Source of the DNA: a virus
Length of the DNA stretch: 64,000 nucleotides
Reading direction: 5' to 3' (one strand)
IMG/VR virus record: IMGVR_UViG_3300009030_000001
Location: 9,155-73,154 of that record
The translations under genes and the position numbers were made by a program. Under the pieces are notes generated by a model, which saw nothing but the letters and a program-made list of their open reading frames with translations, did no database searches and had not been told where the DNA came from. Below, piece by piece: positions 8,175 to 53,067 of this stretch (position 1 is its first letter; each line of letters begins with the position of its first letter).

Positions 8175-11048
8175 ATGGCCCTTCGGGATTTCGGCGCGAC
8201 TCTCATTCAGTTGGTATTCACCGTTGCCGGCGCCGCGGCTGGTGCTTACTTCGGCAACCCGATACTCGGTGCGAAGGCTGGTGCAGCAGTAGGCGCAGCG
8301 GTCGGCGGCGTGGTGGGATCTCTCGTCGCCAACGAACTGATCTATCCCGATGGGAGAATCGGTGATAGTCCGGCGACGATACTTCCAGATTTGACCAATA
8401 CCGCCGAGGGCGGTCCTGCGATCTATGCGTTCGGCAGCGGTGTCAGGGTGCGTGGTCAGTTGATCTGGATGTCGACAGTCTTCATCGACAACGGGCACCG
8501 AACAGCGCATGTGGCGATAGCCGTAAATCGTCGCCTGACCAATTCCTTGTTCGCGATCTACGCGGACGGCTACAAGATTTTCACCACGATAGGCACGCGG
8601 GTGATCGGCACTGGACAGGTCCAGATTCGTCACTTCTTGCAGACTCCGAACCTCGTATTCACCCGCCTAGATTCTCCAGGGGGGCAGGTTGATCTGACCC
8701 AAATCAAGGTCGGTGGTGGGGAGTTCAAGATCACCCTCAGTGGATTCTCCAAGCCACAGAACAATGCGGCCAAATTCTTGGTCTTGTTTACCGGCCGATT
8801 CAAATCAGGCGGCGGCACATACGTGATGCTGCGGGCTGAGGACATGACCACCTTCCTTCCGACGCCGTCGAACTTTGACGAGGGGATCACCCCGAATGTC
8901 ACGGTTACCGAAAAGATCACGATCGGTGTCAATCGTGATTTCGCGAAGGCGATCACGTTCCATGACGGCACAGCGGGACAGGCACTGGACCCTCTCATGG
9001 TTCAGCATCAAGTCGAGCCGGTCGCGCATGAAGGGCTGTCCTACTACGTCATCGACTCGCTGCGTCTGACGCAATTCGGCAACCGTGTTCCTCTAGACAC
9101 CACACATATACTGGTCGCGGACGATGCTACGTACACGCTGGGCGACGTGATTCGCGACGTGTTCGCGATCGGCGCTGCTCCGGCTCACCCCGACGGTCCA
9201 GTCGTCCCGAATACTGACGGCGTGACTGGCGCCTTGGATCAATTCAGAGGATTCGTCAGCTACGGTAACAATTCGATCGTCGGCAGGATGCAATCGCTGA
9301 TCACCGCCTACAACCTTCTCGCTCAGGTTCGCGACGATACCGTTTACATCTTCACCCCAGACAACGCCCGCATCTCATTCATCAACGAGTTCGAGTTCGG
9401 GATCACATCAGCGGCGACCGGTGCCGGGATCCGATTCTCCCCGGAGCGATCCGACAGCGAACTACCATCCGGCGTCACGTTGCATTTCTCCGATGTGGAC
9501 AAGAACCTGGAGGATGCGGCGGTCGACGAGCACAAGACGAGGAACGAATTTCGCCATGACAACATGGTGAATGTGGACCTTCGCGCCCATTCGCTAACAG
9601 TGTCTGAGGCACGTTCAATCGCACTTCGAATTCTGTGGGAGCCGTCACGACAGCGACAGGCATGGCGTGGGTCATTGCCGGCGAATTTCTACTACCTGCT
9701 CGAAAACGACGCGATCAACACCACGGTGAACGGGGAGAAGGTGAAGCTCCTGATCAAGAAGATTGACCAGGGCGCGATGGGGACGATTGAGTTGGAGGGG
9801 TTCGTGATCACCGATCCCATCACCCTCAGCATCGCTGAGTCATCTACCTTCGAAGACTTCTCGACCGACGATTCAGAGGTCAACGATGGCCGCTCCCAGT
9901 TGACTCTTGCGATCTGCGAACTGCCTGCACTGACGCCGGACGAGATCGTAGAGCCGTCCTATTACCTGCCGGTCGCATCGTACGGCGAGCGTCGGATCGA
10001 GTCGGCGCAGATCCAACAGACCTGTGATTGTGACGGGGTGACATTCGAGAAGATTGCGGATGTAGTTGATGAGGCGGCGATAGGGATCGTCGTCGATGGC
10101 TCAGACTTCCAAGACCGCGCGATACCGAATCAGTTTGATCGAGAGTCGTCGATCGATGTCGTGCTATTTCAGGGCACGCTACGAGCGCATGAAGAGCCGA
10201 TGGTGCTGTGCGGTTCGAATCTAGCCTGCGTCGATGGCGAGGTATTCGCGTTCTCTGGCGTCGAGGATCTTGGGTTCGTCGATGATGAACTCGGTCGAGT
10301 CTACCGGCTGACTACGATGCTGCGGGGCATGATGGACACCGATCCTAGCCACCGGCCCGAGCGTGGCGTTCAATTCGTCATGCTCACGAATCACGCCGCG
10401 TTGAACCCGATCAGAATCCCCTGGGGGTCGATCGGATCCCCACGCACGGTACGAGCCACAACTGGCGGCGATGTTCTCGATGACGAGGTATTCGATGCGG
10501 ACACGTTCACCCCGCTCGCGCACAACCTTCGTCCGTTCGCGGTTGTCAACATCACCGGGTCGATCGATGGCTCGGACAACTGGAACATCTTCTGGGTTCG
10601 ACGCTCGCGTTACCCCGGGTTCCGAGTCGTGTCGCAGTTCAACGATCAAGACGTGGACGCCAGACTGTACCAAGTAGAGATCTTGGATGGCCCGAACGGA
10701 ACGATCAAGCGATCGACGACGGGGGTCACTGAGTCGTTCCAGTATCTGTCCGCTGATCAGGTCACCGACTTTGGTTCCAACCAGACCCGAATCTACGTGC
10801 GGATCAGTCGCATCGGAACCTGGGGCATCGGTAAGCCTGCTGAAGCTACGCTCCCAGGTGACATCGTCTACGGCCGGTCAAATGCTGACGGTGTTGCCAC
10901 TGCGGTAGCCACTGGCAAACTCATCGCAGGCGGAAAGGCGTTGGCTGACGGCGTTGCTACAGCGACGGCGCGAGGCGTCCGAATCATCCAGGGAACTGCT
11001 ACAGCGGCAGGAACATCAACAGCAACCGCAGATGGAAACGTGATCTAG
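8175..11048 (+). CDS. tail tip / host-specificity protein (GTA-like phage tail protein)
   Basis: 957 aa; G..IYAFG..RVRGQLIW, L..FGNRVP, ELPSGV.LHFSD, NLACVDGEVFAF, LRG..DT, W.RRSR motifs. Confidence 0.82.
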   Translation: MALRDFGATLIQLVFTVAGAAAGAYFGNPILGAKAGAAVGAAVGGVVGSLVANELIYPDGRIGDSPATILPDLTNTAEGGPAIYAFGSGVRVRGQLIWMSTVFIDNGHRTAHVAIAVNRRLTNSLFAIYADGYKIFTTIGTRVIGTGQVQIRHFLQTPNLVFTRLDSPGGQVDLTQIKVGGGEFKITLSGFSKPQNNAAKFLVLFTGRFKSGGGTYVMLRAEDMTTFLPTPSNFDEGITPNVTVTEKITIGVNRDFAKAITFHDGTAGQALDPLMVQHQVEPVAHEGLSYYVIDSLRLTQFGNRVPLDTTHILVADDATYTLGDVIRDVFAIGAAPAHPDGPVVPNTDGVTGALDQFRGFVSYGNNSIVGRMQSLITAYNLLAQVRDDTVYIFTPDNARISFINEFEFGITSAATGAGIRFSPERSDSELPSGVTLHFSDVDKNLEDAAVDEHKTRNEFRHDNMVNVDLRAHSLTVSEARSIALRILWEPSRQRQAWRGSLPANFYYLLENDAINTTVNGEKVKLLIKKIDQGAMGTIELEGFVITDPITLSIAESSTFEDFSTDDSEVNDGRSQLTLAICELPALTPDEIVEPSYYLPVASYGERRIESAQIQQTCDCDGVTFEKIADVVDEAAIGIVVDGSDFQDRAIPNQFDRESSIDVVLFQGTLRAHEEPMVLCGSNLACVDGEVFAFSGVEDLGFVDDELGRVYRLTTMLRGMMDTDPSHRPERGVQFVMLTNHAALNPIRIPWGSIGSPRTVRATTGGDVLDDEVFDADTFTPLAHNLRPFAVVNITGSIDGSDNWNIFWVRRSRYPGFRVVSQFNDQDVDARLYQVEILDGPNGTIKRSTTGVTESFQYLSADQVTDFGSNQTRIYVRISRIGTWGIGKPAEATLPGDIVYGRSNADGVATAVATGKLIAGGKALADGVATATARGVRIIQGTATAAGTSTATADGNVI

Positions 11049-11052
11049 AGCC

Positions 11053-11559
11053 ATGGTAACGACCAAGAATCTCAACCTCACCCATATCGCCGACAGCGCG
11101 AACCAAGCCGCGGCGGTCAACACGGCATTGAACATCATCGACGCGATGACGCGCGGCGGCGTTGCCATCAACGAGACCGACACGCCGCCTGGGTCTCCAG
11201 GAGAAGGTGATACCTACATCGTCGGCACGGCACCGACAGGTCTATGGTCTTCGAACCCGGAGGACATAGCGATGTACTTCACCGGTTGGGTGTTCGTCAC
11301 GCCGAAGAAGGGTTGGCTCGTGCACGAACAGACCAACGACATCGACAGGTTCTTCGATGGCGCGAGCTGGATCAACCATCGGCAAGGCGATGCGGTAACC
11401 AGCTTGACCGACAACAGTGGCGGTGCCGCCTCCAATACGATCGCATCGATCGGTGCGACCTACGATCAGAACGAGGTCCGCAACGCGGTGGCGTCTCTCG
11501 CAGCCAAGATCAACACGCTCATCTCGCGAATGGAGGGGAACGACTCCCTGGCACCATAG
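11053..11559 (+). CDS. DUF2793-like tail fibre-associated protein
   Basis: VNTALNIID...PPGSPGEGDTYIVG..PTGLW...W.F.TPKKGW. Confidence 0.8.
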   Translation: MVTTKNLNLTHIADSANQAAAVNTALNIIDAMTRGGVAINETDTPPGSPGEGDTYIVGTAPTGLWSSNPEDIAMYFTGWVFVTPKKGWLVHEQTNDIDRFFDGASWINHRQGDAVTSLTDNSGGAASNTIASIGATYDQNEVRNAVASLAAKINTLISRMEGNDSLAP

Positions 11560-11876: not shown

Positions 11877-12175
11877 GGTACACGTTCACGGACGAAGATG
11901 GTGGCACGCACGAGTTCGTTGCGGTGAGCGTGGTGGTGCACTCCACTCGTGGGGCTAGGAGTCTGCGATGGTACGAGGGCACGCTGATCAAGACCGTCGA
12001 TGGTACCTGGGCGTGCCAGATCCTGGGGAAAAGTCAGGTGGAAGGGGAGACAACCCGAGTAGTTCTGCACACGGCCCGAACCGACCGGGAGTTGACGGCC
12101 AAGTTAGGGCAGACTCCGGTGGCGCAGAAGCTGTACCAGTTGGCCAGAGTGGACAACGTGGAGTGGTTGGAGTAG
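11873..12175 (+). CDS. hypothetical protein, paralogue of the upstream gene
   Basis: GTGA overlap; RW-E-L-T-G motif; shared DNVE ending. Confidence 0.6.
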   Translation: MRYTFTDEDGGTHEFVAVSVVVHSTRGARSLRWYEGTLIKTVDGTWACQILGKSQVEGETTRVVLHTARTDRELTAKLGQTPVAQKLYQLARVDNVEWLE

Positions 12176-12294
12176 GGGTCCAGGTTTTTCGCTACCCCCA
12201 CATCTTGCGGCTTCCATCCAGCGTCGTAGACGGTAGTCTACCGGTCTATCAGAACCGTATACGGTAACCAACCAAACCCACGGAGGAAGGCCCC

Positions 12295-12669
12295 ATGGCC
12301 CTGGAACAGTTCAATCTGGAATCCCTGAACACGATCGACGATGGTCGCATTCGCGAGGCGGTGAACGCCGCTCTGAAGCGGTGCGATGCGGATTGTCGCG
12401 ATCGGCCAGCGTTGAAGGACGCGCGGAAGGTGGTCGTCGAAATCTCGCTCGAACCACAGGTCGGCGACGACGGCAATCTGCACAGCGTGGACGTATCGTT
12501 CTCGGTGAGCGACAAGCAGCCGAAGCGGAAGTCCCGCACCTACAACATGGCGTCGGTTCCCGGCGGCCTACTTTTCAACGAGCGGTCTCCCGAAGACATC
12601 AAGCAGGGAACGCTCGACCTAGATACCGGCCCCACGAAGGCCGTAGGAGAAGCTGCCGATGCTCGCTGA
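12295..12669 (+). CDS. conserved phage protein (partner of DUF2303-like gene)
   Basis: RBS GGAGG; DRP...RKVVVEISLEP motif. Confidence 0.6.
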   Translation: MALEQFNLESLNTIDDGRIREAVNAALKRCDADCRDRPALKDARKVVVEISLEPQVGDDGNLHSVDVSFSVSDKQPKRKSRTYNMASVPGGLLFNERSPEDIKQGTLDLDTGPTKAVGEAADAR

Positions 12670-27482: not shown

Positions 27483-27528
27483 TTGAACAATCCCACCCCT
27501 CCCCTATATTGATACCCGTTGGCCAAGT
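27483..27528 (+). promoter_or_regulatory. repeated sigma70-type promoter cassette, copy 1
   Basis: TTGAAC-16 nt-TATATT; 46 bp identical to 58251-58296. Confidence 0.7.
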
Positions 27529-27555
27529 TGGTCAGCAGAACCAGGAACACGGAAC

Positions 27556-28926: not shown

Positions 28927-28935
28927 TGCAAATTT

Positions 28936-29008
28936 GCCGCCAATGGTTGAGCCGGAGGTCTGCTTTCATCCTCCTGGTGGCGAGGTTCGATTCCTCGCGG
29001 CGGCACCA
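28936..29008 (+). tRNA. atypical tRNA-like RNA (Glu-TTC-like loop, reduced D arm)
   Basis: GCCGCC/GGCGGC acceptor plus A-CCA; T arm GCGAGG-TTCGATT-CCTCGC; GGAGG/CCTCC stem enclosing TCTG-CTTTCAT. Confidence 0.55.
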
Positions 29009-29088
29009 TCTTGAGGTAGCTGTTACCTCTTTACAGCCCAGCCATGGGCGCCATCAATCCACAGGCCCGCAAGGGAAGGAAAACGACA

Positions 29089-29718
29089 ATGGCAGACAAA
29101 GTAGAAAGGCTAGTAATCCCCCGTCCGAATCTCCAAACCATCAAGATTCCGATTCGTGGAACTGCGCCATACGTGCAGCATAAGTTCTCTGCGAAGGTTA
29201 GCCAGGAGATGCTACAAGCGCAGGTGGATGGGGCCAAGTCGAAGAACCGCAAAAAGACAAAGCCGCGCGACGTCGATGCGGACTACGAGAGCGCCATCCA
29301 CTACTCGACGGAGGGGTGGATCGGCATCCCTGCGCCAGCATTCCGTAGCGCGTGCATCCGAGCGTGCAAACTCGTCGGCATCGAGATGACGATGGCTAGA
29401 ATGTCGGTGTTCATCGAGCCCGACGGATTCGATGCTGACGAAGGGACGCCGCTTGTCCGCATCTATGGTAAACCAGAACGGAACGAGTCCCCCGTCCGGA
29501 TCGGACAGGGTACCGTTACCATCGCCATCCGCCCAATGTGGCGAAAGTGGACGGCCAAGGTCAAGGTCACGTTCGATGGCGACCAGTTCTCAGCACAAGA
29601 CGTGCTCAACCTGATGCATCGCGCAGGGCTCCAAGTTGGAGTCGGGGAGGGTCGTCCCTTCTCCAAGAAGAGCGATGGGGTGGGGTGGGGTACCTTCGAA
29701 GTAGATGATACCAAATGA
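29089..29718 (+). CDS. stand-alone RAMP/Cas7-like protein (Vipr-like)
   Basis: N-terminal IRGTAP strand, IPAPAFRS helix motif, C-terminal Gly-rich loop AGLQVGVGEGRP...GWGTFEV; upstream of a GGY-NN array. Confidence 0.72.
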   Translation: MADKVERLVIPRPNLQTIKIPIRGTAPYVQHKFSAKVSQEMLQAQVDGAKSKNRKKTKPRDVDADYESAIHYSTEGWIGIPAPAFRSACIRACKLVGIEMTMARMSVFIEPDGFDADEGTPLVRIYGKPERNESPVRIGQGTVTIAIRPMWRKWTAKVKVTFDGDQFSAQDVLNLMHRAGLQVGVGEGRPFSKKSDGVGWGTFEVDDTK

Positions 29719-30188
29719 TGAACGACGAACAACTGGCAGCCTTGCAGGCTATCTATGACCGCGATGGGAACCTCAAGGCCAGCACTGTGCTGGCCGAGGC
29801 GACTCCGCCGGATGCTCCGTGCCACTCGCTGTTTGAGTGGGATGTGGAGAAGGCGGCACGGGAATTCAACCTCGACATTGCGCGGCAAATATGCCGGACC
29901 GTCGTCATCAGTCATGATGGTTTGGCGGAACGGTTGGTCAACGTCCCATCAATCCGGCGGGAGGGTGAGGAAAGTCAAGAGGGCTACTACCAGTTCCCGG
30001 GTGTGATGGTGCAGGACGAACACGATCGAGCGATGGGTCAGGCGTTGTCGGCGCTGCACGCGGCCCATGAGAATGTCGATGTGCTTGCCAAGGGTCCGAA
30101 GGGTTCACCTAACCTGAGGAAGGCGTTGAAAGGCATCAAGAGGGCTCAGGATCTCCTAGAATCTGAGCGTCAAGGCCCGGCGTCGTGA
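29715..30188 (+). CDS. partner protein of the RAMP-like gene
   Basis: ATGA-coupled; A..PDAPCHSLFEWD..KAA....AR motif; array starts at the base after its stop. Confidence 0.65.
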   Translation: MMNDEQLAALQAIYDRDGNLKASTVLAEATPPDAPCHSLFEWDVEKAAREFNLDIARQICRTVVISHDGLAERLVNVPSIRREGEESQEGYYQFPGVMVQDEHDRAMGQALSALHAAHENVDVLAKGPKGSPNLRKALKGIKRAQDLLESERQGPAS

Positions 30189-30506
30189 GGCTGGGCAAGG
30201 CAGGTACTGCGAGGCACGGCAGGCAATGCGCGGCGTGGCACGGCGAGGCGGGGCAGGGCGTGGCTCGGTCCGGCACGGCACGGCAGGCGGGGCGCGGCGG
30301 GGCCTGGCCCGGCATGGCGAGGCGCGGCACGGCACGGCAGGCGAGGCGGGGCAGGGCGTGGCTCGGTCCGGCACGGCACGGCAGGCGTAGCGCGGTGTGG
30401 ATAGGCAAGGCATGGCGAGGGCGGGCATGGCAAGGCAATGCAGGCATGGCACGGTGTGGCTTGGCAGGGCGCGGTACGGCACGGCTTGGCAAAGCAGGCA
30501 TGGCAT
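30189..30506 (+). repeat. GGY-NN pentamer array, putative guide ncRNA (VIPR-like)
   Basis: About 65 GGC/GGT-type triplets at 5-nt period with variable dinucleotides, punctuated by 4-nt (G/T/A)GCA steps into units. Confidence 0.8.
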
Positions 30507-30759
30507 AGTTTCCCACGACAAATGAACCAAGGTGCAGGCAGCCCAGAACAAATACCGCCGGTCAGGAGCCGGCTTGGCCTATCTGGTTTGCGTCTTCGTT
30601 CGAGGCAAACACCAACCCAATAACGGTGCTGCCTGCACCGACTTCTACGATGATGGATTCGACGAAACCTCAAGATTCCAGTTGAACAAACCAACCTGAC
30701 CCCCATACTGCACACAGGCTGATCGAGTTGGTCAGCTAGAACACGAAAAAGGAACGGCC

Positions 30760-32097
30760 ATGACTGAAGAGACCTTCTCCGACCTGACACTGATCGGGCT
30801 TCGCGTCCGTGATTTCATGCGTGTCAGTCTTGTCGAACTCAAACCGGACGAGTCTGGAACGATCGAACTACGCGGTGCGAATGCTGCTGGCAAGACGAGC
30901 GTGATTTGGGCGATCTGGGCGGCCTTGGGCGGTGGCCGCGTGTCGCCGGATCGACCCATCAAGGAAGGCGCGGAAGAAGCGTCGGTCATGCTCGACTTTG
31001 GTGACATCCTAGTCAAGCGGACCTGGGACGAGACCGGCACCAAGCTCGAAGTGCGACGGTCCAGCGATGGCACCACGATCAAGTCGCCGCAGAAGCTGTT
31101 GGACTCGCTCGTGTCCCAGTTCGTCGACCCGTGCCAGTTCCTCATGCTTCGACCCGAGGATCAGGCCGCGCAGGTTCTCGCCATGACAGGGTTAGCCGAA
31201 CCACTGAGAGAACTGGACGACAAGGAAGAACGGGCGACGGAGGTTCGACGGGATCTTGGTCGAGATATGAAGCGGGCGCAAGGCGCCCACAGAACCGCGG
31301 CGGATGATCTTCCCGCACTCGACAAGGACGCGCCATCCATCTCGGATGCGGCGGTAGCACTGAAGACGGAGACCGATTACTTTTTGCTACACACGTCGGA
31401 GAAGGAGAGTTTGGACTATGCCGTGCGCGACATCGATCGTGTGAAGGGATATATCACGACGCTGACCGAAGAGATCGCAGCGCGGACCACGCAGATTGGC
31501 GAACGCCAAGAGCAGTTGACGCGAACCCAAGGGGCGATTGTCGCGCACACGAAATACCTCGCCGACAATCGCCAACCGGATCTTGACGGTGCGCAGAAGG
31601 CTTTGGACCTTGCAGAGACCCAGGCTGGAGCAGTCGCGGCACACAAGAACGAGAGGGATCTCAACACGGCGTTCTGCGCCGCGAAGAAACTGCACGACGG
31701 CGCCGAACATCGGGTGAAGGAGATTCGGTCGAAGCGCGCAACGATTCTGGAGGGCGCGGAGTTCCCGGTGGCCGCAATGAGCTACGACGCGGACGCGAAG
31801 ACCCTGATGCTCGGAACGGTATCGTTCACGCAGGCGTCCAGCGCGGAACAGTTGAAAGCATCGATTGAGTTAGCCATTGCGGGCAGCCCTGGGATCAAGC
31901 TCCTGTTCGTGCGCGACGCTTCGCTGCTAGATTCGGATTCGCTCACCGTCATTCGAACCATGGCCGCAGAGCGAGGGTACCAAGTCATCCTTGAGATCGT
32001 AGACGAAGACCCGGAAGGCCCAGGCGTGTTCATCGAGGATGGATGCGTACGAGAACAGAGTGAACCAAACAAACCGACACCCAAGGCATATGAGTGA
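30760..32097 (+). CDS. SMC/Rad50-like ABC ATPase with coiled coil
   Basis: Walker A GANAAGKT; long coiled coil; signature SSAEQ; Walker B LFVRDASLLD. Confidence 0.85.
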   Translation: MTEETFSDLTLIGLRVRDFMRVSLVELKPDESGTIELRGANAAGKTSVIWAIWAALGGGRVSPDRPIKEGAEEASVMLDFGDILVKRTWDETGTKLEVRRSSDGTTIKSPQKLLDSLVSQFVDPCQFLMLRPEDQAAQVLAMTGLAEPLRELDDKEERATEVRRDLGRDMKRAQGAHRTAADDLPALDKDAPSISDAAVALKTETDYFLLHTSEKESLDYAVRDIDRVKGYITTLTEEIAARTTQIGERQEQLTRTQGAIVAHTKYLADNRQPDLDGAQKALDLAETQAGAVAAHKNERDLNTAFCAAKKLHDGAEHRVKEIRSKRATILEGAEFPVAAMSYDADAKTLMLGTVSFTQASSAEQLKASIELAIAGSPGIKLLFVRDASLLDSDSLTVIRTMAAERGYQVILEIVDEDPEGPGVFIEDGCVREQSEPNKPTPKAYE

Positions 32098-32869
32098 GCC
32101 AGACAGTCCGATACACATGCTCTCAGAGCGAACCAAGCCCCGCGATACCCACCGAGAATGAGTGAGCCAATCGTTGCGATACTCAGTCACTCCGAACGAG
32201 CCATCCACGTCGACACCCATACCACATGAGCGAACCAACTCCCCCGAAACCCAGAGACGATGAATGAGCCAGACTCTGCGATACCCACAGACGTCGATCG
32301 AACCAGAGACCCAGACACCCAGGCAAGAAGAGTGAGCCATCACGCCCGATACACACCCGTTGAGAGCGAACCACAGCCCTCGATACCCACGCACAGCGAG
32401 TGAACCACGTGAACGAACACCCAAGTGCAACGATTGATCCACACAACCGGCGATCGAGCCAAGGATACTGATGTCCAAATCGTTCGAGCGAGTCAAAGAA
32501 ACAGATACCCACACCATATGAGCGAACCAGCCGACCGGATGCCTAAAACCACAGAGTGAACCATCCAACATGATACCCACCCCCACGGAGTGAGTCAGGA
32601 TCGTTGAAACACAAGGACTCGAAACGAACCACATGCCACGATGCCCAATTCGACAGAGTGAGCCACACCGAGTGACGCCCACTAGGCACGAACGAACCAC
32701 GATGACCGATGCACAGAAAACAAGAGTGAACCAGGGCCACCGATACCCAGATGCGATGAGTGAACCATGAGGGCCGATATCCAAGTCGGGTGAGTGAGCC
32801 AATAGCTGAGATACCCAGACGTCGTGAGCGAACCAGTACGAGCGATACCCAAACAGAACAAGTGAACCA
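32058..32869 (+). repeat. TIGR-like dual-spacer array 1 (23 full 34-nt units, one 20-nt short unit, terminal repeat)
   Basis: GAGYGARCCA-N8-GAYACCCA-N8 at exact 34-nt period (32058, 32092, 32126...); spacers vary between units. Confidence 0.88.
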
Positions 32870-32884
32870 AACAGGATAACAACC

Positions 32885-33997
32885 ATGACCGATACGAGTG
32901 TGCAGACCGCGTTAGACCTGACCCCCGCTGTTCAGCGGATAACGAAGGATCTACGCGAAGCCGTGAAGACCTTGAACGTGCAAGAGGCCCGGTACCTGGT
33001 CGACTACTACTACCAGATGCAGGAGGATCGGAAGCGGTCGGCGAATCAGGAGCGGGCGGTGAAGGACGGCGCTGATACGGAAGGCCCGTCCGGTGCGGTG
33101 GCTTGGCTCGCTGCGCAGGGAAGGTGCATGGAAAGCCGGGTCAGGACGTTCCTGGACATCTACTCCGGCCACCACCCTCTTGGGATCTGGGCCCGATCGA
33201 ACGTGGGAATTGGCCCTGTTATCGCAGCCGGATTGCTCGCGCACATCGACATGGCGCAGGCGCCGACCGCAGGACACATCTGGTCGTTCGCAGGATTGGA
33301 TCCACGGGTGAAGTGGACCGGTGCAACCGAGACGGCGAAGGAACTGGAAGCGTGCCTCGGCGGGCGGCCCGACAAGGTGTCCTACGAGCATCTCGTCATG
33401 GCGTGCGAACACTTCCGGCGCAAGCCAGCCACGATTGAACGCTACGCCAAGCCGCTCAACTGGACGACGTTGGTGAAGGCGCTGAACCGGCGGCCGTGGA
33501 ACACGCCGCTCAAAACTCTGTGCTGGAAGATCGGGGAGAGCTTCTGCAAGGTCTCGGGTAATCCAGACGCCTTCTACGGCAAGCTGTACGCCGAGTACAG
33601 GGTCGAAGAAGACCGGCGGAATATCGCTGGCGAGTACATACAGCAGGCGTATGACAAACTCGAACGCTTCAAGATCGGCAAGGACACCGACGCGCACTTG
33701 TGGTATGCGGGATGCCTTACTTCTGTCAACGCGAAAGACATTCGAAAGGCGGAGTCGAGCAAGCGTATGGGAATGGCGAAGAAACTGGCAGGCGATCCCG
33801 GAAGCGGACAGCCGATGTTGCCACCGGCCCACTTGTTCGCTCGCGCCAAGCGCCGTGTTGTCAAATTATTCCTCAGCCACTATCACCACGTCGGCTACAT
33901 GCTCTCGCACGACGGCGAAGAACCCCCGCGCCCCTGGGCCCTTTGCCAAGGGGGGCATACCCATTTCATCCCGCCGCCCAACCTAGACAAACTGTAG
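32885..33997 (+). CDS. Nop/IS110-C-terminal domain protein without nuclease domain (TasA-like)
   Basis: LVDYYYQMQ..RKR..NQ coiled coil; GIGPVIAAGLL; IWSFAGL; WN..LKTLCW.IGESF; ARAKRR.VKLFLSH; no N-terminal DEDD/RuvC; flanked by arrays. Confidence 0.82.
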   Translation: MTDTSVQTALDLTPAVQRITKDLREAVKTLNVQEARYLVDYYYQMQEDRKRSANQERAVKDGADTEGPSGAVAWLAAQGRCMESRVRTFLDIYSGHHPLGIWARSNVGIGPVIAAGLLAHIDMAQAPTAGHIWSFAGLDPRVKWTGATETAKELEACLGGRPDKVSYEHLVMACEHFRRKPATIERYAKPLNWTTLVKALNRRPWNTPLKTLCWKIGESFCKVSGNPDAFYGKLYAEYRVEEDRRNIAGEYIQQAYDKLERFKIGKDTDAHLWYAGCLTSVNAKDIRKAESSKRMGMAKKLAGDPGSGQPMLPPAHLFARAKRRVVKLFLSHYHHVGYMLSHDGEEPPRPWALCQGGHTHFIPPPNLDKL

Positions 33998-34374
33998 TCA
34001 GAACCCACGACACCCAGGACATCAGAACGAGTCAGTTCGAATGACACACACACGATGAGAACGAGCCATGAAGTAGAATGCACAAAGTTGAGGATCGAGC
34101 CAAGATGAGCGATACCCAAACCCTCTGAGTGAGCCAACCCCTCCGATACTCATCATCTAGGAGCTAGCCACCGTAGGCGATACCCATAACGCAAGATCGA
34201 GCCATGACAGGTAACACCCACAACATTAGATCGAACCACCACTGGTGATACACACTACCTCAGAGTGAGCCATAGGAGTTGATACCCAACATGATCGAAC
34301 GAGCCACTTCTTGAGATGCCCAGAGCCTGAGATCGAGCCAGTCGCCAAGAGACCCATGAGAATCGAGCGAACCA
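33991..34374 (+). repeat. TIGR-like dual-spacer array 2 (11 units plus terminal repeat)
   Basis: Same 10+8+8+8 architecture at 34-nt period (33991, 34025 ... 34365). Confidence 0.88.
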
Positions 34375-34451
34375 CATAACCACATTTGGCACCGGGCAGG
34401 AGTTGACTCTCCTTCTTCCCCTTTTCCCGAACCCTGTCCGGTGCGTTTACC

Positions 34452-34775
34452 ATGACCAACCGCCCAGACCCATCGAGCACCCACATCCGAATCCACATCC
34501 TGTCCATGCTGTCGCCGACTGAACCGAAAGCTGGCGAAGACATCAGGGCCGAAGTTGCATGGGTGCCTTCCGTCGCGGCCTTCCTGAACATGCTTTCTGG
34601 CATGGATGATTGTGACTACGTCGCAACCCACAGAACGCCACGGTCCAGGGATGGACACGGCACAACCGTAAACGAATACACCATCACAGCGCGCGGTCGC
34701 CAAGTTCTAGAGGAGGCTGTCGCCTTCTACGCGGACTTGTCGAAACCAAACGCAAAGGAGACTGAGACGAGATGA
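34452..34775 (+). CDS. PadR-like winged-helix protein
   Basis: C-terminal YTITARGRQVL motif. Confidence 0.55.
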   Translation: MTNRPDPSSTHIRIHILSMLSPTEPKAGEDIRAEVAWVPSVAAFLNMLSGMDDCDYVATHRTPRSRDGHGTTVNEYTITARGRQVLEEAVAFYADLSKPNAKETETR

Positions 34776-37746: not shown

Positions 37747-37983
37747 ATGAGAGAAGACCAAGCACAACGCTACATCGTCGAACTTGACGATGGCGACGGT
37801 CTGTGGTTTCCGATTCACTGCATTGGAGACCACCCTCATGGACTGACGCAGGAACAGGCCAAGGTCCGCGCCCATGGCTACGCTGAAGGCCAAGCTACTG
37901 CGCGCATTGCTCCGGTCATAGGATTCAGGCGAGACAGCGGCGGACGCACCATCGAACCGATCTCGGGAAACGATGTCGTCTGA
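37747..37983 (+). CDS. hypothetical protein
   Basis: ORF overlapping the methyltransferase start. Confidence 0.4.
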   Translation: MREDQAQRYIVELDDGDGLWFPIHCIGDHPHGLTQEQAKVRAHGYAEGQATARIAPVIGFRRDSGGRTIEPISGNDVV

Positions 37984-39208
37984 CAACACGCACATCGTCG
38001 AACAGCTACGGTCGCTGGCGCGGCCCGTGGACGAGTTCACGCTCGATCCCACCAACGCCAGGATCCACGACGAAGACAACCTGGAAGTGATCAGGACTTC
38101 GTTGAAGAAGTACGGCCAGCGGCAGCCGATCGTCGTCCAGAAGGACGGCATGATCGTTCGGGCCGGGAACGCGCGCCTGATCGTCGCCAGGAAGCTGGGG
38201 TGGAAGACCATCGCCGCGGTGGTGATCGACGAGCCTGACCTTGCCGCAACTGCTTACGGCATAATCGATAATCGTAGCAGCGAAATGGCCGAGTGGAGTG
38301 ACGAGACCCTAGCGAAGCTGCTGGCGTCGATTCAGTCCGAGAATCCGGAGATGCTAGAAGCCACCGGATTCGACGAATCGGAGTTGGAAGAATTGCTAGC
38401 CGAGATCGCAGGCGAACCGGACGTGATCCAAGATGACGTCCCGGAACCGCCAGCGGAACCGGTCGCAAAGCTCGGGCAGTTGTGGGCGTTGGGTGATCAT
38501 CGTCTCTTATGTGGTGACTCGACGAAGACGGATGACGTGGAGCGTCTGATGGACGGCGAGAAGGCTCGGATGGTATTCACCGACCCGCCGTACGCGCTAT
38601 TCGGCAACTCGACTGGGGTTGCTGGGATAGTGGACGACAAGATGACGCGTCCGTTCTTCTTGGAGGTATTCAGGCAGAGCCGAGCCTTCACCAAGTTGTT
38701 CGCCCATATCTACGTCTGCTGTGATTGGCACTCGGCGTTTTCGTTGCAAGCAATGGCCCGAGAAGCCGGGCTGACGGAAAAGAACCTTTGCATCTGGGAC
38801 AAGGGGGACGGTGGCATTGGCGCTATGTATCAGCAGTGTTACGAAATGGTTTGGTTTTTCGCTAATTCCCCCATAGCCGCCGGGGCGACCGCCAAGAAAG
38901 CCGTAGGGGAACGAACAATCAACGGCAAGCCGAACATCTGGCGATTTCCCCGCGAGTTGGCGGACAGATCGCACAATGCGCAGAAACCGGTGGAGATGGT
39001 TGCTGGTGCGGTGAGTAACAGCAGCGACCCAAAGGATATAGTACTGGATTTGTTCTTAGGCGGTGGAACCACTCTGATTGCCGCCGAACAACTTGATCGC
39101 ACTTGTTACGCAATGGATCTAGAGCCAAAGTATTGCGACGTCACCATTGCCAGATGGGAGAAGCTGACCGGCCAGAAGGCAGAACTCTTGGAGGAATCCC
39201 ATGCCTAA
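37973..39208 (+). CDS. ParB-N domain fused to N6-A/N4-C DNA methyltransferase (beta class)
   Basis: NARIH...PIVV...AGNARL; HRLLCGDS; TDPPY; H..QKPV; VLDLFLGGGTT; DLEPKYCDV. Confidence 0.92.
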   Translation: MSSDNTHIVEQLRSLARPVDEFTLDPTNARIHDEDNLEVIRTSLKKYGQRQPIVVQKDGMIVRAGNARLIVARKLGWKTIAAVVIDEPDLAATAYGIIDNRSSEMAEWSDETLAKLLASIQSENPEMLEATGFDESELEELLAEIAGEPDVIQDDVPEPPAEPVAKLGQLWALGDHRLLCGDSTKTDDVERLMDGEKARMVFTDPPYALFGNSTGVAGIVDDKMTRPFFLEVFRQSRAFTKLFAHIYVCCDWHSAFSLQAMAREAGLTEKNLCIWDKGDGGIGAMYQQCYEMVWFFANSPIAAGATAKKAVGERTINGKPNIWRFPRELADRSHNAQKPVEMVAGAVSNSSDPKDIVLDLFLGGGTTLIAAEQLDRTCYAMDLEPKYCDVTIARWEKLTGQKAELLEESHA

Positions 39209-52970: not shown

Positions 52971-53067
52971 GGCAGCGCGCTTCGGGGGCGACCCCCGGAT
53001 GCCGAACGCAAGTTCGTGATGGGAATAGAAATCCCCAGCCCGGTGTGAATCCGGGGCGCTGTTTCCA
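52971..53067 (+). ncRNA. tRNA-like structured RNA (8-bp acceptor, 5-bp T stem, CCA end)
   Basis: GGCAGCGC/GCGCTGTT plus T-CCA; CCCGG-TGTGAAT-CCGGG; three internal hairpins. Confidence 0.5.

Follow-up and report, generated by a model that had tools for sequence, protein, structure and literature searches.

A VIPR system and a TIGR-TasA system probably lie side by side in an island of a 73-kb phage

The island at positions 28,936–34,775 of the window (the 64,000-nucleotide stretch of DNA that was analysed, taken from a record that represents a complete 73,154-bp virus with terminal repeats) very probably carries, side by side, two independent RNA-guided DNA-binding systems of already-described kinds, VIPR and TIGR-TasA, both of them phage-borne and nuclease-free; we put the probability of this reading at about 0.8. 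Neither system is new as a kind, both TIGR-Tas and VIPR having been published in 2025–26, and relatives of both kinds silence transcription of the DNA that they bind, as described in two preprints (bioRxiv 10.64898/2026.04.26.720920; 10.64898/2026.09.09.750476). Within this 73-kb phage with terminal repeats, both would belong to the accessory portion of the early region. All of the listed island elements were found at their positions on the plus strand, and their co-oriented order, as proposed in a first-pass annotation of the same DNA, was confirmed: tRNA-like RNA, RAMP-like gene, partner gene, GGY-NN array, ATPase, array 1, Tas-like gene, array 2 and winged-helix (wHTH) gene. The two RNA-guide systems recognised in that annotation are both real and mutually unrelated, and its view that the guide-binding proteins lack a nuclease motif is borne out by Pfam, by the predicted folds and by fold searches. 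The tRNA-like element, the wHTH gene and, most likely, the ATPase are neighbours and parts of neither system.

The first effector gene, vipr (29,089–29,718, plus strand), lies in an open reading frame that opens at 29,044 (29,044–29,718); its start is probably the ATG at 29,089, judging from an AAGGAA ribosome-binding site upstream, which gives a protein of 209 aa. Its assignment as a guide-binding protein of the RAMP/Cas7 fold draws on profile comparison with the PDB, on the predicted fold and on its association with an array. A profile built from 27 Vipr homologues matched SUSP1 Vipr (36pp_D) over nearly the full length with an E-value of 6.9e-8, profile positions 19–193 aligning with residues 3–181 and GVGeGRP falling opposite GVGDWRP, and the single Vipr sequence matched SUSP1 Vipr with an E-value of 1.8e-5. 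The AF2 model (pLDDT 81) found its best folds in Csm3, type VII Cas7 and Cmr4, with an E-value of 1.6e-4 for Csm3 and type VII Cas7. The family comprises 2,221 homologues at E ≤ 0.001, and among 80 homologous viral vipr loci a run of YNNGG pentamers, counted when it held at least five strict units, was present on the same strand in 64 and on the opposite strand in 4. Overlapping vipr by 4 nt and translationally coupled to it is a vap-like accessory gene of 157 aa (29,715–30,188, plus strand; phrog_15946, E 2.8e-13), a homologue of which lies beside vipr in 35 of the 80 loci by tblastn. The vap-like protein had no match in Pfam or the PDB, and its nearest Atlas clusters are viral hypothetical proteins.

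Three nucleotides past the stop of the vap-like gene begins the vrRNA array (30,191–30,508, plus strand), which register analysis resolved into about 64 YNNGG pentamers over 318 nt. Seven 4-nt CAGG units split it into in-phase blocks of 2, 3, 12, 10, 8, 11, 10 and 2 units, of which the five longer ones (12, 10, 8, 11 and 10 units) are guide blocks and the short ones lie at the ends; the 12-unit block has its 3' portion duplicated as the 8-unit block. This layout fits the "staggered arrays with overlapping vrRNAs" named in the legend to fig. S18 of the VIPR preprint (bioRxiv 10.64898/2026.04.26.720920). A structured RNA follows the array (30,530–30,637, plus strand; fold of 30,495–30,760, z −2.02), closed by a 12-bp stem that encloses two hairpins; it is about 90% identical in the sister phage, where two pairs are changed on both sides (G-C to U-A and U-A to A-U). 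If the system works as SUSP1 VIPR does, protomers of Vipr would assemble into a polymer on each in-phase block and grip the GGY bases, and the exposed NN dinucleotides would read double-stranded DNA while skipping one base; the bound Vipr-vrRNA complex would then stop transcription.

The published VIPR system (bioRxiv 10.64898/2026.04.26.720920; structures in 10.64898/2026.04.26.720927) is matched in having a small protein of the RAMP fold, here a homologue of SUSP1 Vipr, and likewise in a coupled small accessory gene, in being phage-borne and in doing without a nuclease. The YNNGG blocks of 8–12 units lie within or just below the range of 9–16 given there. The island protein is nevertheless distant from that of SUSP1 (the profile E-value of 6.9e-8 marks no close homologue), and its guides form one continuous staggered array with 4-nt CAGG breaks rather than separate vrRNAs, each with a tail; a single conserved structured element stands after the whole array, unlike the per-vrRNA tails.

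The second effector gene is of the tasA type (32,885–33,997, plus strand); its product combines an N-terminal coiled coil with a Nop-like domain and lacks a nuclease domain. Pfam assigned it to Transposase_20 (E 9e-7), and a phmmer search of PDB sequences returned TasR (9mty, E 5.3e-9) and TasH (21kl, E 1.1e-4). The AF2 model (pLDDT 85, pTM 0.81) is all-helical with an N-terminal coiled coil, and in a fold search with it each of the top ten matches was a TasH or TasR-tigRNA complex (E between 1e-5 and 4e-4; TM by target 0.52–0.71 for ranks 1–10), followed by the IS621 recombinase. No HNH, RuvC or other nuclease family was detected by Pfam or in the AF2 model. In a C-terminal loop that may correspond to the Y/H processing loop of the dual-repeat class, H358 is invariant in 18 clade members; the aromatic residue before it is W in the window protein and Y, F or W in other members of the clade.

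Arrays flank tas on both sides, with 33 full units in all. Array 1 (32,058–32,869, plus strand) holds 23 full 34-nt units, a truncated unit of 20 nt at 32,432 and a terminal edge repeat, and its first unit lies inside the 3' end of the ATPase gene in both sister phages; array 2 (34,025–34,374, plus strand) holds 10 full units and a terminal edge repeat. Each unit consists of the edge repeat GAGYGARCCA (10 nt), spacer A (8 nt), the loop repeat GATACCCA (8 nt) and spacer B (8 nt). Columns 1–10 and 19–26 carry 0.6–2.0 bits, columns 11–18 and 27–34 carry 0–0.3 bits, and the arrays are far beyond chance. A 12-bp hairpin with a 32-nt loop (34,389–34,444, plus strand), kept in the sister phage, lies between array 2 and the next gene. 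If the analogy with the studied TasA, TasH and TasR holds, each 34-nt tigRNA would be held by a dimer of Tas, its two 8-nt spacers would base-pair to the two opposite strands of the DNA, and repression by the complex would involve no cleavage.

Dual-repeat TIGR-Tas and TasA as published (Faure et al. 2025, PMC12045711; bioRxiv 10.64898/2026.09.09.750476) have the same features: the protein has a Nop domain and an N-terminal coiled coil and lacks a nuclease, arrays flank its gene, and edge and loop repeats alternate, with two spacers. The 16 variable nucleotides per unit equal those of the published SpTIGR (PMC12045711). An array unit within coding sequence is described there for tas genes, whereas in the island it lies within the neighbouring ATPase gene, and the unit here is 34 nt against the 36 nt typical of the dual-repeat class. 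The island Tas also has two insertions (about 55 and 35 aa) common to only some members of its clade, and no member of that clade was found in 50,697 GenBank phage records.

Guides turn over fast between the sister phages, and the arrays are very probably live. Identity to the window is 77% for Vipr, 90% for Tas and 41% for the vap-like protein; the vrRNA arrays have no 4-unit string in common, and TIGR array 1 has only its first unit in common. Array 2 is longer in the sister phage, and the units here are collinear with some of those there, orthologous units differing by one to three spacer changes, along with gains and losses of whole units. Two extra small genes lie between array 2 and the wHTH gene in the sister phage. 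It is very hard to credit that either array, or both, is a relic in decay or mere repetitive DNA that guides nothing in this phage. Such a reading would agree with the lack of targets for either array's guides in phage DNA (2.47 Mb) and, for the patterns searched, in IMG/VR, and with the presence of degenerate units (CAATG, CGTAG and CAAAG in the vrRNA array, and the truncated TIGR unit at 32,432). Against it, both effector genes are intact and well conserved, the TIGR repeat columns are strongly conserved while the spacer columns are near random, the arrays of the sister phages differ by whole units yet stay in register, and the degenerate units are concentrated at block boundaries. The target searches themselves were as follows: no TIGR spacer matched at 16/16 in 2.47 Mb of phage DNA, which included the phage itself, and the 15/16 matches came at the level of shuffled controls (9 in the real data, 65 across five shuffles); no vrRNA block gave a 1-nt-skip match within three mismatches in the same 2.47 Mb, and two 18-base vrRNA skip patterns had no exact match in IMG/VR. 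In these collections no target, shared or otherwise, was found for any guide. The searches favour neither inter-phage competition nor host silencing, the two uses proposed in the first-pass annotation.

The island probably comprises two transcription units and not one, because a second copy of a promoter-like motif lies inside it at 30,682. The first copy (27,483–27,545, plus strand; 9/12 matches in a promoter scan) reads TTGAAC, a 16-nt spacer and TATATT, followed by a hairpin ending TTGGTCAGC. It lies outside the island, upstream of LPD29 and CxxCxxCC genes. The second copy with its hairpin (30,682–30,745, plus strand) is near-identical, lies directly upstream of the ATPase gene and is kept in the sister phage; a regular-expression search found exactly these two copies genome-wide. 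The first-pass annotation had placed every element downstream of the repeated promoter at 27,483. The copy at 30,682 separates the VIPR part from the ATPase–TIGR part, so that the idea of a single arsenal under a single promoter does not stand. Unit 1 would start at the 27,483 promoter and contain the VIPR system, and unit 2 would start at 30,682, the ATPase mRNA continuing into TIGR array 1, tasA and array 2.

The ATPase (30,760–32,097, plus strand; 445 aa) is an SbcC/SMC-like ABC protein. It matches Pfam AAA_23 with an E-value of 8.6e-6 and 27 bits, which equals the cut-off, and phrog_1499 over its full length (E 7e-56), and its residues 7–54 match phrog_77, an SbcC-like N-terminus; the architecture is that of an N-terminal Walker A head (AAA_23), a central coiled coil and a C-terminal head. 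It is most likely a neighbour from a phage recombination module, because it has its own promoter copy and its family occurs in 213 GenBank phage records without the island-type Tas (30% identity, 96% coverage). In two actinophages (of Arthrobacter and Gordonia) a homologue heads a module that continues with a small HTH gene, a RecE-like gene and a RecT-like gene. Actinophage homologues are annotated as MRE11 double-strand break endo/exonuclease, DNA repair protein or AAA-ATPase. The island ATPase resembles these SbcC/Rad50-like "DNA repair" ATPases in sequence (30–31% identity over 96% of the length) and in its early-region position, but a search of the island phage's whole genome detected neither a RecE nor a RecT homologue, and the 3' end of the island gene overlaps a TIGR unit. 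It seems highly improbable that the protein is instead an effector or loader for TIGR-TasA or VIPR, acting on guide-marked DNA. Such a role would suit the promoter copy and probable transcript that it shares with TIGR array 1 in both sister phages, the embedded first unit that physically ties it to the array in that lineage, and the distant homologues that lie 5–8 kb from Tas in two other loci (L052 and L310). The family is, however, common in phages without Tas or Vipr, Tas occurring in none of the 213 records or elsewhere in that collection and the island's Vipr clade in only 6 GenBank phage records; the ATPase is missing from 78 of 80 viral Tas loci and from 79 of 80 Vipr loci, being present in 2 and 1 respectively; its homologues adjoin RecE/RecT-like genes in actinophages; and at L060 and L245 both guide systems are paired without it. 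Between the alternatives of the first-pass annotation, effector or mere neighbour, the surveys thus favour the neighbour, the ATPase being absent from most Tas and Vipr loci.

The other two neighbours are small. The last gene of the island (34,452–34,775, plus strand), perhaps a winged-helix gene, is weakly PadR-like, its Pfam PadR match (E 0.021, 15.2 bits) falling below the cut-off of 27, so that it is not assigned to that family; it was found at one Tas locus and one Vipr locus among 80 of each, both times in the sister phage. Neither this gene nor the ATPase travels with VIPR or TIGR-Tas in the 80-locus surveys. At the other end lies a degenerate tRNA-like element (28,935–29,008, plus strand). 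Its acceptor stem has 7 bp, its D region is weak, a 5-bp arm carries an 11-nt loop, the T arm is perfect and the element ends in CCA. It folds at −35.1 kcal/mol (z −1.72), and the sister phage matches it at 92.5% identity across 120 nt. Its best Rfam match, the tRNA-like mascRNA-menRNA model, scored 29.2 bits (E 0.0075) where the gathering score is 42.5. Reading it as a canonical tRNA was rejected: ARAGORN gave no tRNA here by default and called one, with an intron, only at 90% thresholds, and the Rfam scan gave no match to a tRNA family.

Co-location of the two guide systems is rare but recurrent, and no evidence of cooperation between them was found. By tblastn and HMM alike, Tas occurs in 1 of 80 Vipr loci, the sole case being the sister phage; Vipr occurs in 1 of 80 viral, 1 of 32 genome and 0 of 80 metagenome Tas loci, and a VIPR array in 3 of about 200 Tas loci. 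A VIPR array lies upstream of TIGR-Tas, on one strand and in the same order, in the window and its sister and, directly upstream, in L060 and in L245/L337, which together represent three unrelated backbones, and the pairing involves two different Vipr clades and array styles, the L245 Vipr belonging to a different, SUSP1-like clade (E 1.1e-23). L060 has only Tas and the arrays in common with L245/L337, and Tas and a ParB-methylase in common with the window; the comparison of L245 with the window covered ten island genes only. The recurrence argues against coincidence alone as the source of the pairing. The neighbourhood survey that had been suggested therefore gives a divided answer, the modules being independent in nearly all relatives and yet paired on three backbones. 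The first-pass annotation had set independent occurrence without enrichment against its own reading; the independence is found, but a lack of enrichment cannot be claimed, since the pairing recurs. A full-text literature search returned no paper describing VIPR paired with TIGR-Tas, the matching passages treating the two systems separately. Defence and counter-defence islands and variable phage accessory regions likewise cluster unrelated conflict systems, with gene content shifting between sister phages; here, by contrast, both clustered systems are RNA-guided silencers carried by the virus itself.

We regard it as unlikely that the two systems form a functionally linked arsenal kept together by selection because they cooperate, for instance as two orthogonal silencers directed at one competitor or by way of common regulation or host factors. 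In its favour, VIPR followed by TIGR-Tas on the same strand recurs in three unrelated backbones with two Vipr clades, and chance adjacency would be expected well under once in about 2.3 Mb of Tas flanks, a rough estimate, rather than a formal test, from 305 confirmed loci of the island Vipr clade in 2.9 million IMG/VR contigs. On the other hand, only one of the two systems is present at 79 of 80 Vipr loci, at 6 of the 7 SUSP1-like Vipr loci and at about 197 of 200 Tas loci; an unrelated gene and a promoter copy lie between VIPR and TIGR-Tas in the window, no target common to both arrays was found in 2.47 Mb of phage DNA, and the L060 contig has the VIPR array and TIGR-Tas without the vipr gene itself. 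Phage accessory genes commonly accumulate in one variable region, which can bring systems together without cooperation.

We therefore prefer two independent systems side by side; that the island is transcribed and its guides processed, that the complexes bind and silence DNA, and that they serve against competing mobile elements is something that we only infer. That phages repeatedly build guide-RNA islands, with VIPR directly upstream of TIGR-TasA, through cooperation or joint selection is a tentative idea that we think improbable. Were it true, layered, escape-proof repression of the same competitor would be possible, the SbcC-like ATPase or the tRNA-like element might be recruited helpers, and guide-RNA islands would be a place to look for more RNA-guided systems as yet unknown.

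The two guide systems that the first-pass annotation placed in a 6-kb island are borne out, and they can be identified as VIPR, in which a Vipr protein of the RAMP/Cas7 fold and a vap accessory gene accompany a YNNGG array of vrRNAs, and TIGR-TasA, in which dual-repeat arrays coding for tigRNAs flank the gene of a nuclease-less Tas protein. The stretch adds a new member to each of two known kinds of RNA-guided silencer, and as a kind of system it holds nothing new. The source record (73,154 bp) has direct terminal repeats and is rated complete in IMG/VR; in the window the G+C content is 57–61% and the + strand holds nearly all genes. Only one public run contains this sequence, a DNA run with the label subsurface metagenome that may be the source itself, and no RNA run is listed among the public runs with it.

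The Vipr protein (209/224 aa) has no Pfam family. Relatives in IMG/VR were found only with an alignment-based search, a single-sequence search having given none. The family is large, with 2,221 proteins at E ≤ 0.001. Its profile matches the solved SUSP1 Vipr over nearly the full length (E 6.9e-8), and the predicted structure is Cas7/Csm3-like. We surveyed 80 viral Vipr loci out of 305 confirmed. Strict YNNGG runs of at least five units lie on the vipr strand at 64 of these 80 loci, while any such runs on the opposite strand occur at four, and a tblastn homologue of the 157-aa vap-like partner is present at 35. The partner overlaps vipr by 4 nt in the window, and the vrRNA array begins 3 nt past the partner stop and ends at 30,508. 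Its register is shifted by seven 4-nt CAGG units, giving in-phase vrRNA blocks of 12, 10, 8, 11 and 10 units plus short ends, a layout that fits the "staggered arrays with overlapping vrRNAs" named in the VIPR preprint (bioRxiv 10.64898/2026.04.26.720920). The array contains a 98-nt tandem duplication (30242-30437, 86% identity), the product of which is the 8-unit block; since this block exactly repeats the 3' portion of the 12-unit block before it, tandem duplication is one route of array growth. Vipr homologues are also found in the Gordonia phages Pipp, ODay and Ecliptus, in Cyanophage Cy-LDV1, and in Gordonia phage UmaThurman (NC_031249.1, 32723-33632), where gene 39 encodes a homologue with 35% identity. 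The YNNGG array of the window aligns there with a stretch annotated as 'gene 40, hypothetical protein', and judging by this alignment the CDS annotation of gene 40 is probably wrong and the stretch a vrRNA array.

Directly 3' of the vrRNA array lies a structured RNA (30530-30637) in which a 12-bp stem closes around two hairpins. The sister phage keeps it at about 90% identity and with two compensatory pair changes; Rfam has no matching family, and no sequence relatives beyond the sister phage were found among loci L002-L222 of the comparison set. Possible roles are those of a tail common to the vrRNAs, of a processing element or of a terminator-like insulator.

In the TIGR-TasA half, the 34-nt unit consists of the edge repeat GAGYGARCCA, an 8-nt spacer A, the loop repeat GATACCCA and an 8-nt spacer B, and so equals in its sixteen variable bases the published SpTIGR unit (PMC12045711). 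Array 1, upstream of tas, comprises 23 full units plus a truncated one, and array 2, downstream, has 10 units and is followed by a 12-bp hairpin. The first TIGR unit (32058-32097) is embedded in the 3'-terminal codons of the ATPase gene, the stop codon of which falls in the second edge repeat; the sister phage is arranged in the same way (L002 9635-9671). The Tas protein (370 aa) matches Pfam Transposase_20 and, by sequence, the TasR and TasH chains. Its all-helical model (pLDDT 85) returned TasH/TasR-tigRNA complexes at ranks 1–10 of a fold search, followed by the IS621 bridge recombinase. No nuclease domain is present in Tas, which is therefore a TasA-type protein.

At the 5' end of the island, a tRNA-like element (28,935-29,008) features an acceptor stem, a perfect T arm and a CCA end, with an 11-nt loop at the position of the anticodon loop. 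ARAGORN at default settings called no tRNA there, and Rfam gave the mascRNA-menRNA model alone, at a sub-threshold 29.2 bits (E 0.0075). The sister phage has the element at 92.5% identity, and no other sequence relatives of it turned up among loci L002-L222. A different tRNA-like element, with an acceptor stem and the T arm GGGTTCGACTCCC, occurs in another Vipr subclade (L104 5938-6022, L110, L112 9856-9940 and L114 976-1060), where it lies 75–88 nt 5' of vipr, a position matching that in the window. A search for the T-loop motif found a tRNA-like element at five of the 80 Vipr loci, and relaxed ARAGORN settings on the + strand upstream of vipr gave calls in 6 of 79 windows versus 0–2 of 51–62 in each of four sets of control windows. 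The excess upstream of vipr is mild, and such an element is no general VIPR feature; found at few Vipr loci, it is lineage-limited but real. Alignment of the elements of the two subclades by MAFFT and RNAalifold was out of register and its consensus unusable, and a strict scan for an acceptor stem plus T arm did not pick up even the window's own element. As a guess, the element may serve as a processing signal. A second, non-canonical tRNA-like element in the window (52971-53067) was called by ARAGORN at 80% thresholds only, with a long 'intron'.

The earlier view that all of these parts lie under one promoter at 27483 does not hold. Promoter copy 1 (27483-27545, + strand) is sigma-70-like, with TTGAAC and TATATT separated by 16 nt and followed by a hairpin ending in TTGGTCAGC, and stands 5' of an LPD29 gene, a CxxCxxCC gene, a 125-aa gene and a 65-aa gene. 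The promoter-plus-hairpin motif has exactly two copies in the whole 73-kb genome, and the second, with the same hairpin ending TTGGTCAGC, falls within the island, 5' of the ATPase gene (30682-30745, + strand), and is kept in the sister phage. The island is probably expressed as two units.

The sister phage (loci L002, L082 and L162) keeps the full island order, with identities of 77% for Vipr, 41% for the partner, 83% for the ATPase, 90% for Tas and 91% for the small weakly PadR-like wHTH protein. It has extra small genes in two places, 3' of the structured RNA and 5' of the wHTH gene. A short ORF that is rich in Cys and zinc-ribbon-like separates its structured RNA from the ATPase promoter (L002 8040-8275); of this ORF the last ~45 nt remain in the window at 30640-30700, a remnant that indicates deletion. 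The sister vrRNA array is longer and has no 4-unit string in common with that of the window; the vrRNA guides have been replaced wholly. The TIGR arrays differ between the sisters by gain and loss of whole units and by point changes in spacers: array 1 of the sister has nine full units and a terminal edge repeat and shares the first, ATPase-embedded unit alone, and array 2 has at least 21 units, among which counterparts can be identified for five of the ten window units, collinear and with 1–3 spacer bases changed. The comparison thus gives the pace of turnover for each kind of array and bears on the question of TIGR spacer acquisition.

To what extent the two systems belong together was surveyed from both sides. 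The Tas-side survey covered 80 viral loci of 92 confirmed and was extended to 139 locus records on ~88 contigs. By tblastn and HMM, a Vipr gene was found at viral Tas loci in the sister phage alone, and real pentamer arrays in the sister phage and in L060, a 10.7-kb viral contig. One of 32 Tas loci from species genomes (L245) has Vipr and arrays, and none of 80 metagenome loci, 29 of which are at least 6 kb, has the pairing. Conversely, Tas was found at one of the 80 Vipr loci by the same two methods, again in the sister phage, and at one of seven relatives of the L245 Vipr, namely L337, which is the same phage as L245. Joint loci being few in both directions, most relatives by far carry the modules independently.

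The pairing nevertheless recurs. L060, the Tas of which is 36% identical to that of the window, has within 266-1930 a ~140-nt YNNGG array of ~26 units directly 5' of TIGR units, which tas and a TIGR array follow. Only 266 nt of contig precede the YNNGG array, so that no vipr is seen, and the partial upstream ORF is not recognisable as vap. L060 also has a gene combining ParB-N and a DNA methylase after Tas; the window counterpart lies further downstream (37,973-39,208). L245/L337 is a 61.6-kb IMG/VR virus contig that is also binned in a Pyrinomonadaceae genome, and its Vipr strongly resembles SUSP1 Vipr (E 1.1e-23). The order (L245 7255-10924) is vrRNA, Vipr and three vrRNAs each with a hairpin tail of its own, so that there are four tailed vrRNAs in all, then an ORF and an HNH gene, and last a TIGR array with tas; tblastx array matches suggest further TIGR arrays at ~1,400-1,590, 10,930-11,200 and 12,130-12,360. 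Among the tblastx matches listed, L060 and L245 have in common Tas (~50% identity) and array regions. The window shares Tas and the ParB-methylase gene with L060, and Tas alone, out of ten island and flanking genes compared, with L245. Since order and strand are the same in the window and its sister, in L060 and in L245/L337, the pairing stands on three backbones, and it spans two Vipr clades and two array styles. By a rough estimate, confounded by shared habitats and by the gathering of accessory genes in one variable region, chance adjacencies expected in the ~2.3 Mb of scanned Tas flanks number well below one. A full-text literature search found no description of the pairing, though supplements of the papers may list it or this phage. 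One paper covers both systems and, in its accessible text, treats each separately; the accessible text of the VIPR and TIGR papers mentions neither the other system nor SMC or ATPase proteins, and that of the VIPR preprints no tRNA either.

The first-pass annotation had left the SMC-like ATPase as perhaps an effector, perhaps a neighbour, and the evidence favours the latter. The protein (445 aa, SbcC/SMC-like, preceded by promoter copy 2) was found at two of the first 80 Tas loci, in the sister phage and in L052, where it is 8 kb off, and the wHTH gene at one. GenBank has homologues of the ATPase (~30% identity, 96% coverage) in 213 of its phage records, for the most part from Vibrio, Arthrobacter and Streptococcus phages; of all 50,697 phage records, none has the window Tas and six have the window Vipr clade. 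In Arthrobacter phage PrincessTrina and Gordonia phage TillyBobJoe, the homologue leads a module of ATPase, small HTH, RecE and RecT. We considered an insertion of TIGR-Tas between an ancestral ATPase and small-HTH pair. The wHTH protein (107 aa, after the array-2 hairpin, with a sub-threshold match to Pfam PadR) has no detectable similarity to those HTH proteins and neither RecE nor RecT was detected in the window phage genome, so this idea is unsupported. Like the wHTH gene and the tRNA-like element, the ATPase is probably a neighbour of the two systems.

The guides themselves point to no target in the sequences searched. The 33 tigRNA spacer pairs were searched in both arrangements, gaps of 0–2 being allowed, against the phage's own genome and 2.47 Mb of compared loci; none matched at 16/16, and 15/16 matches were at the number expected from shuffling. 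The vrRNA blocks had no match allowing 1-nt skips within three mismatches in the 2.47 Mb of compared loci, and two 18-base vrRNA patterns had no exact match in IMG/VR. Neither self-regulation nor attack on these relatives is thus indicated.

The proposed joint "arsenal" is a reasonable description of the island and is unproven as a functional unit. This reading draws most support from the pairing having been found three times over, and its main weakness is the occurrence of one system alone in almost all relatives. VIPR and TIGR-TasA are very recent discoveries, the natural roles of which are still being worked out, and a complete phage that has both, with five vrRNA blocks and 33 tigRNA units, offers a natural setting in which to ask whether two orthogonal programmable silencers are directed at the same or at different rivals. 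The pairing in three unrelated phages suggests that the flanks of these systems could be mined by guilt by association.
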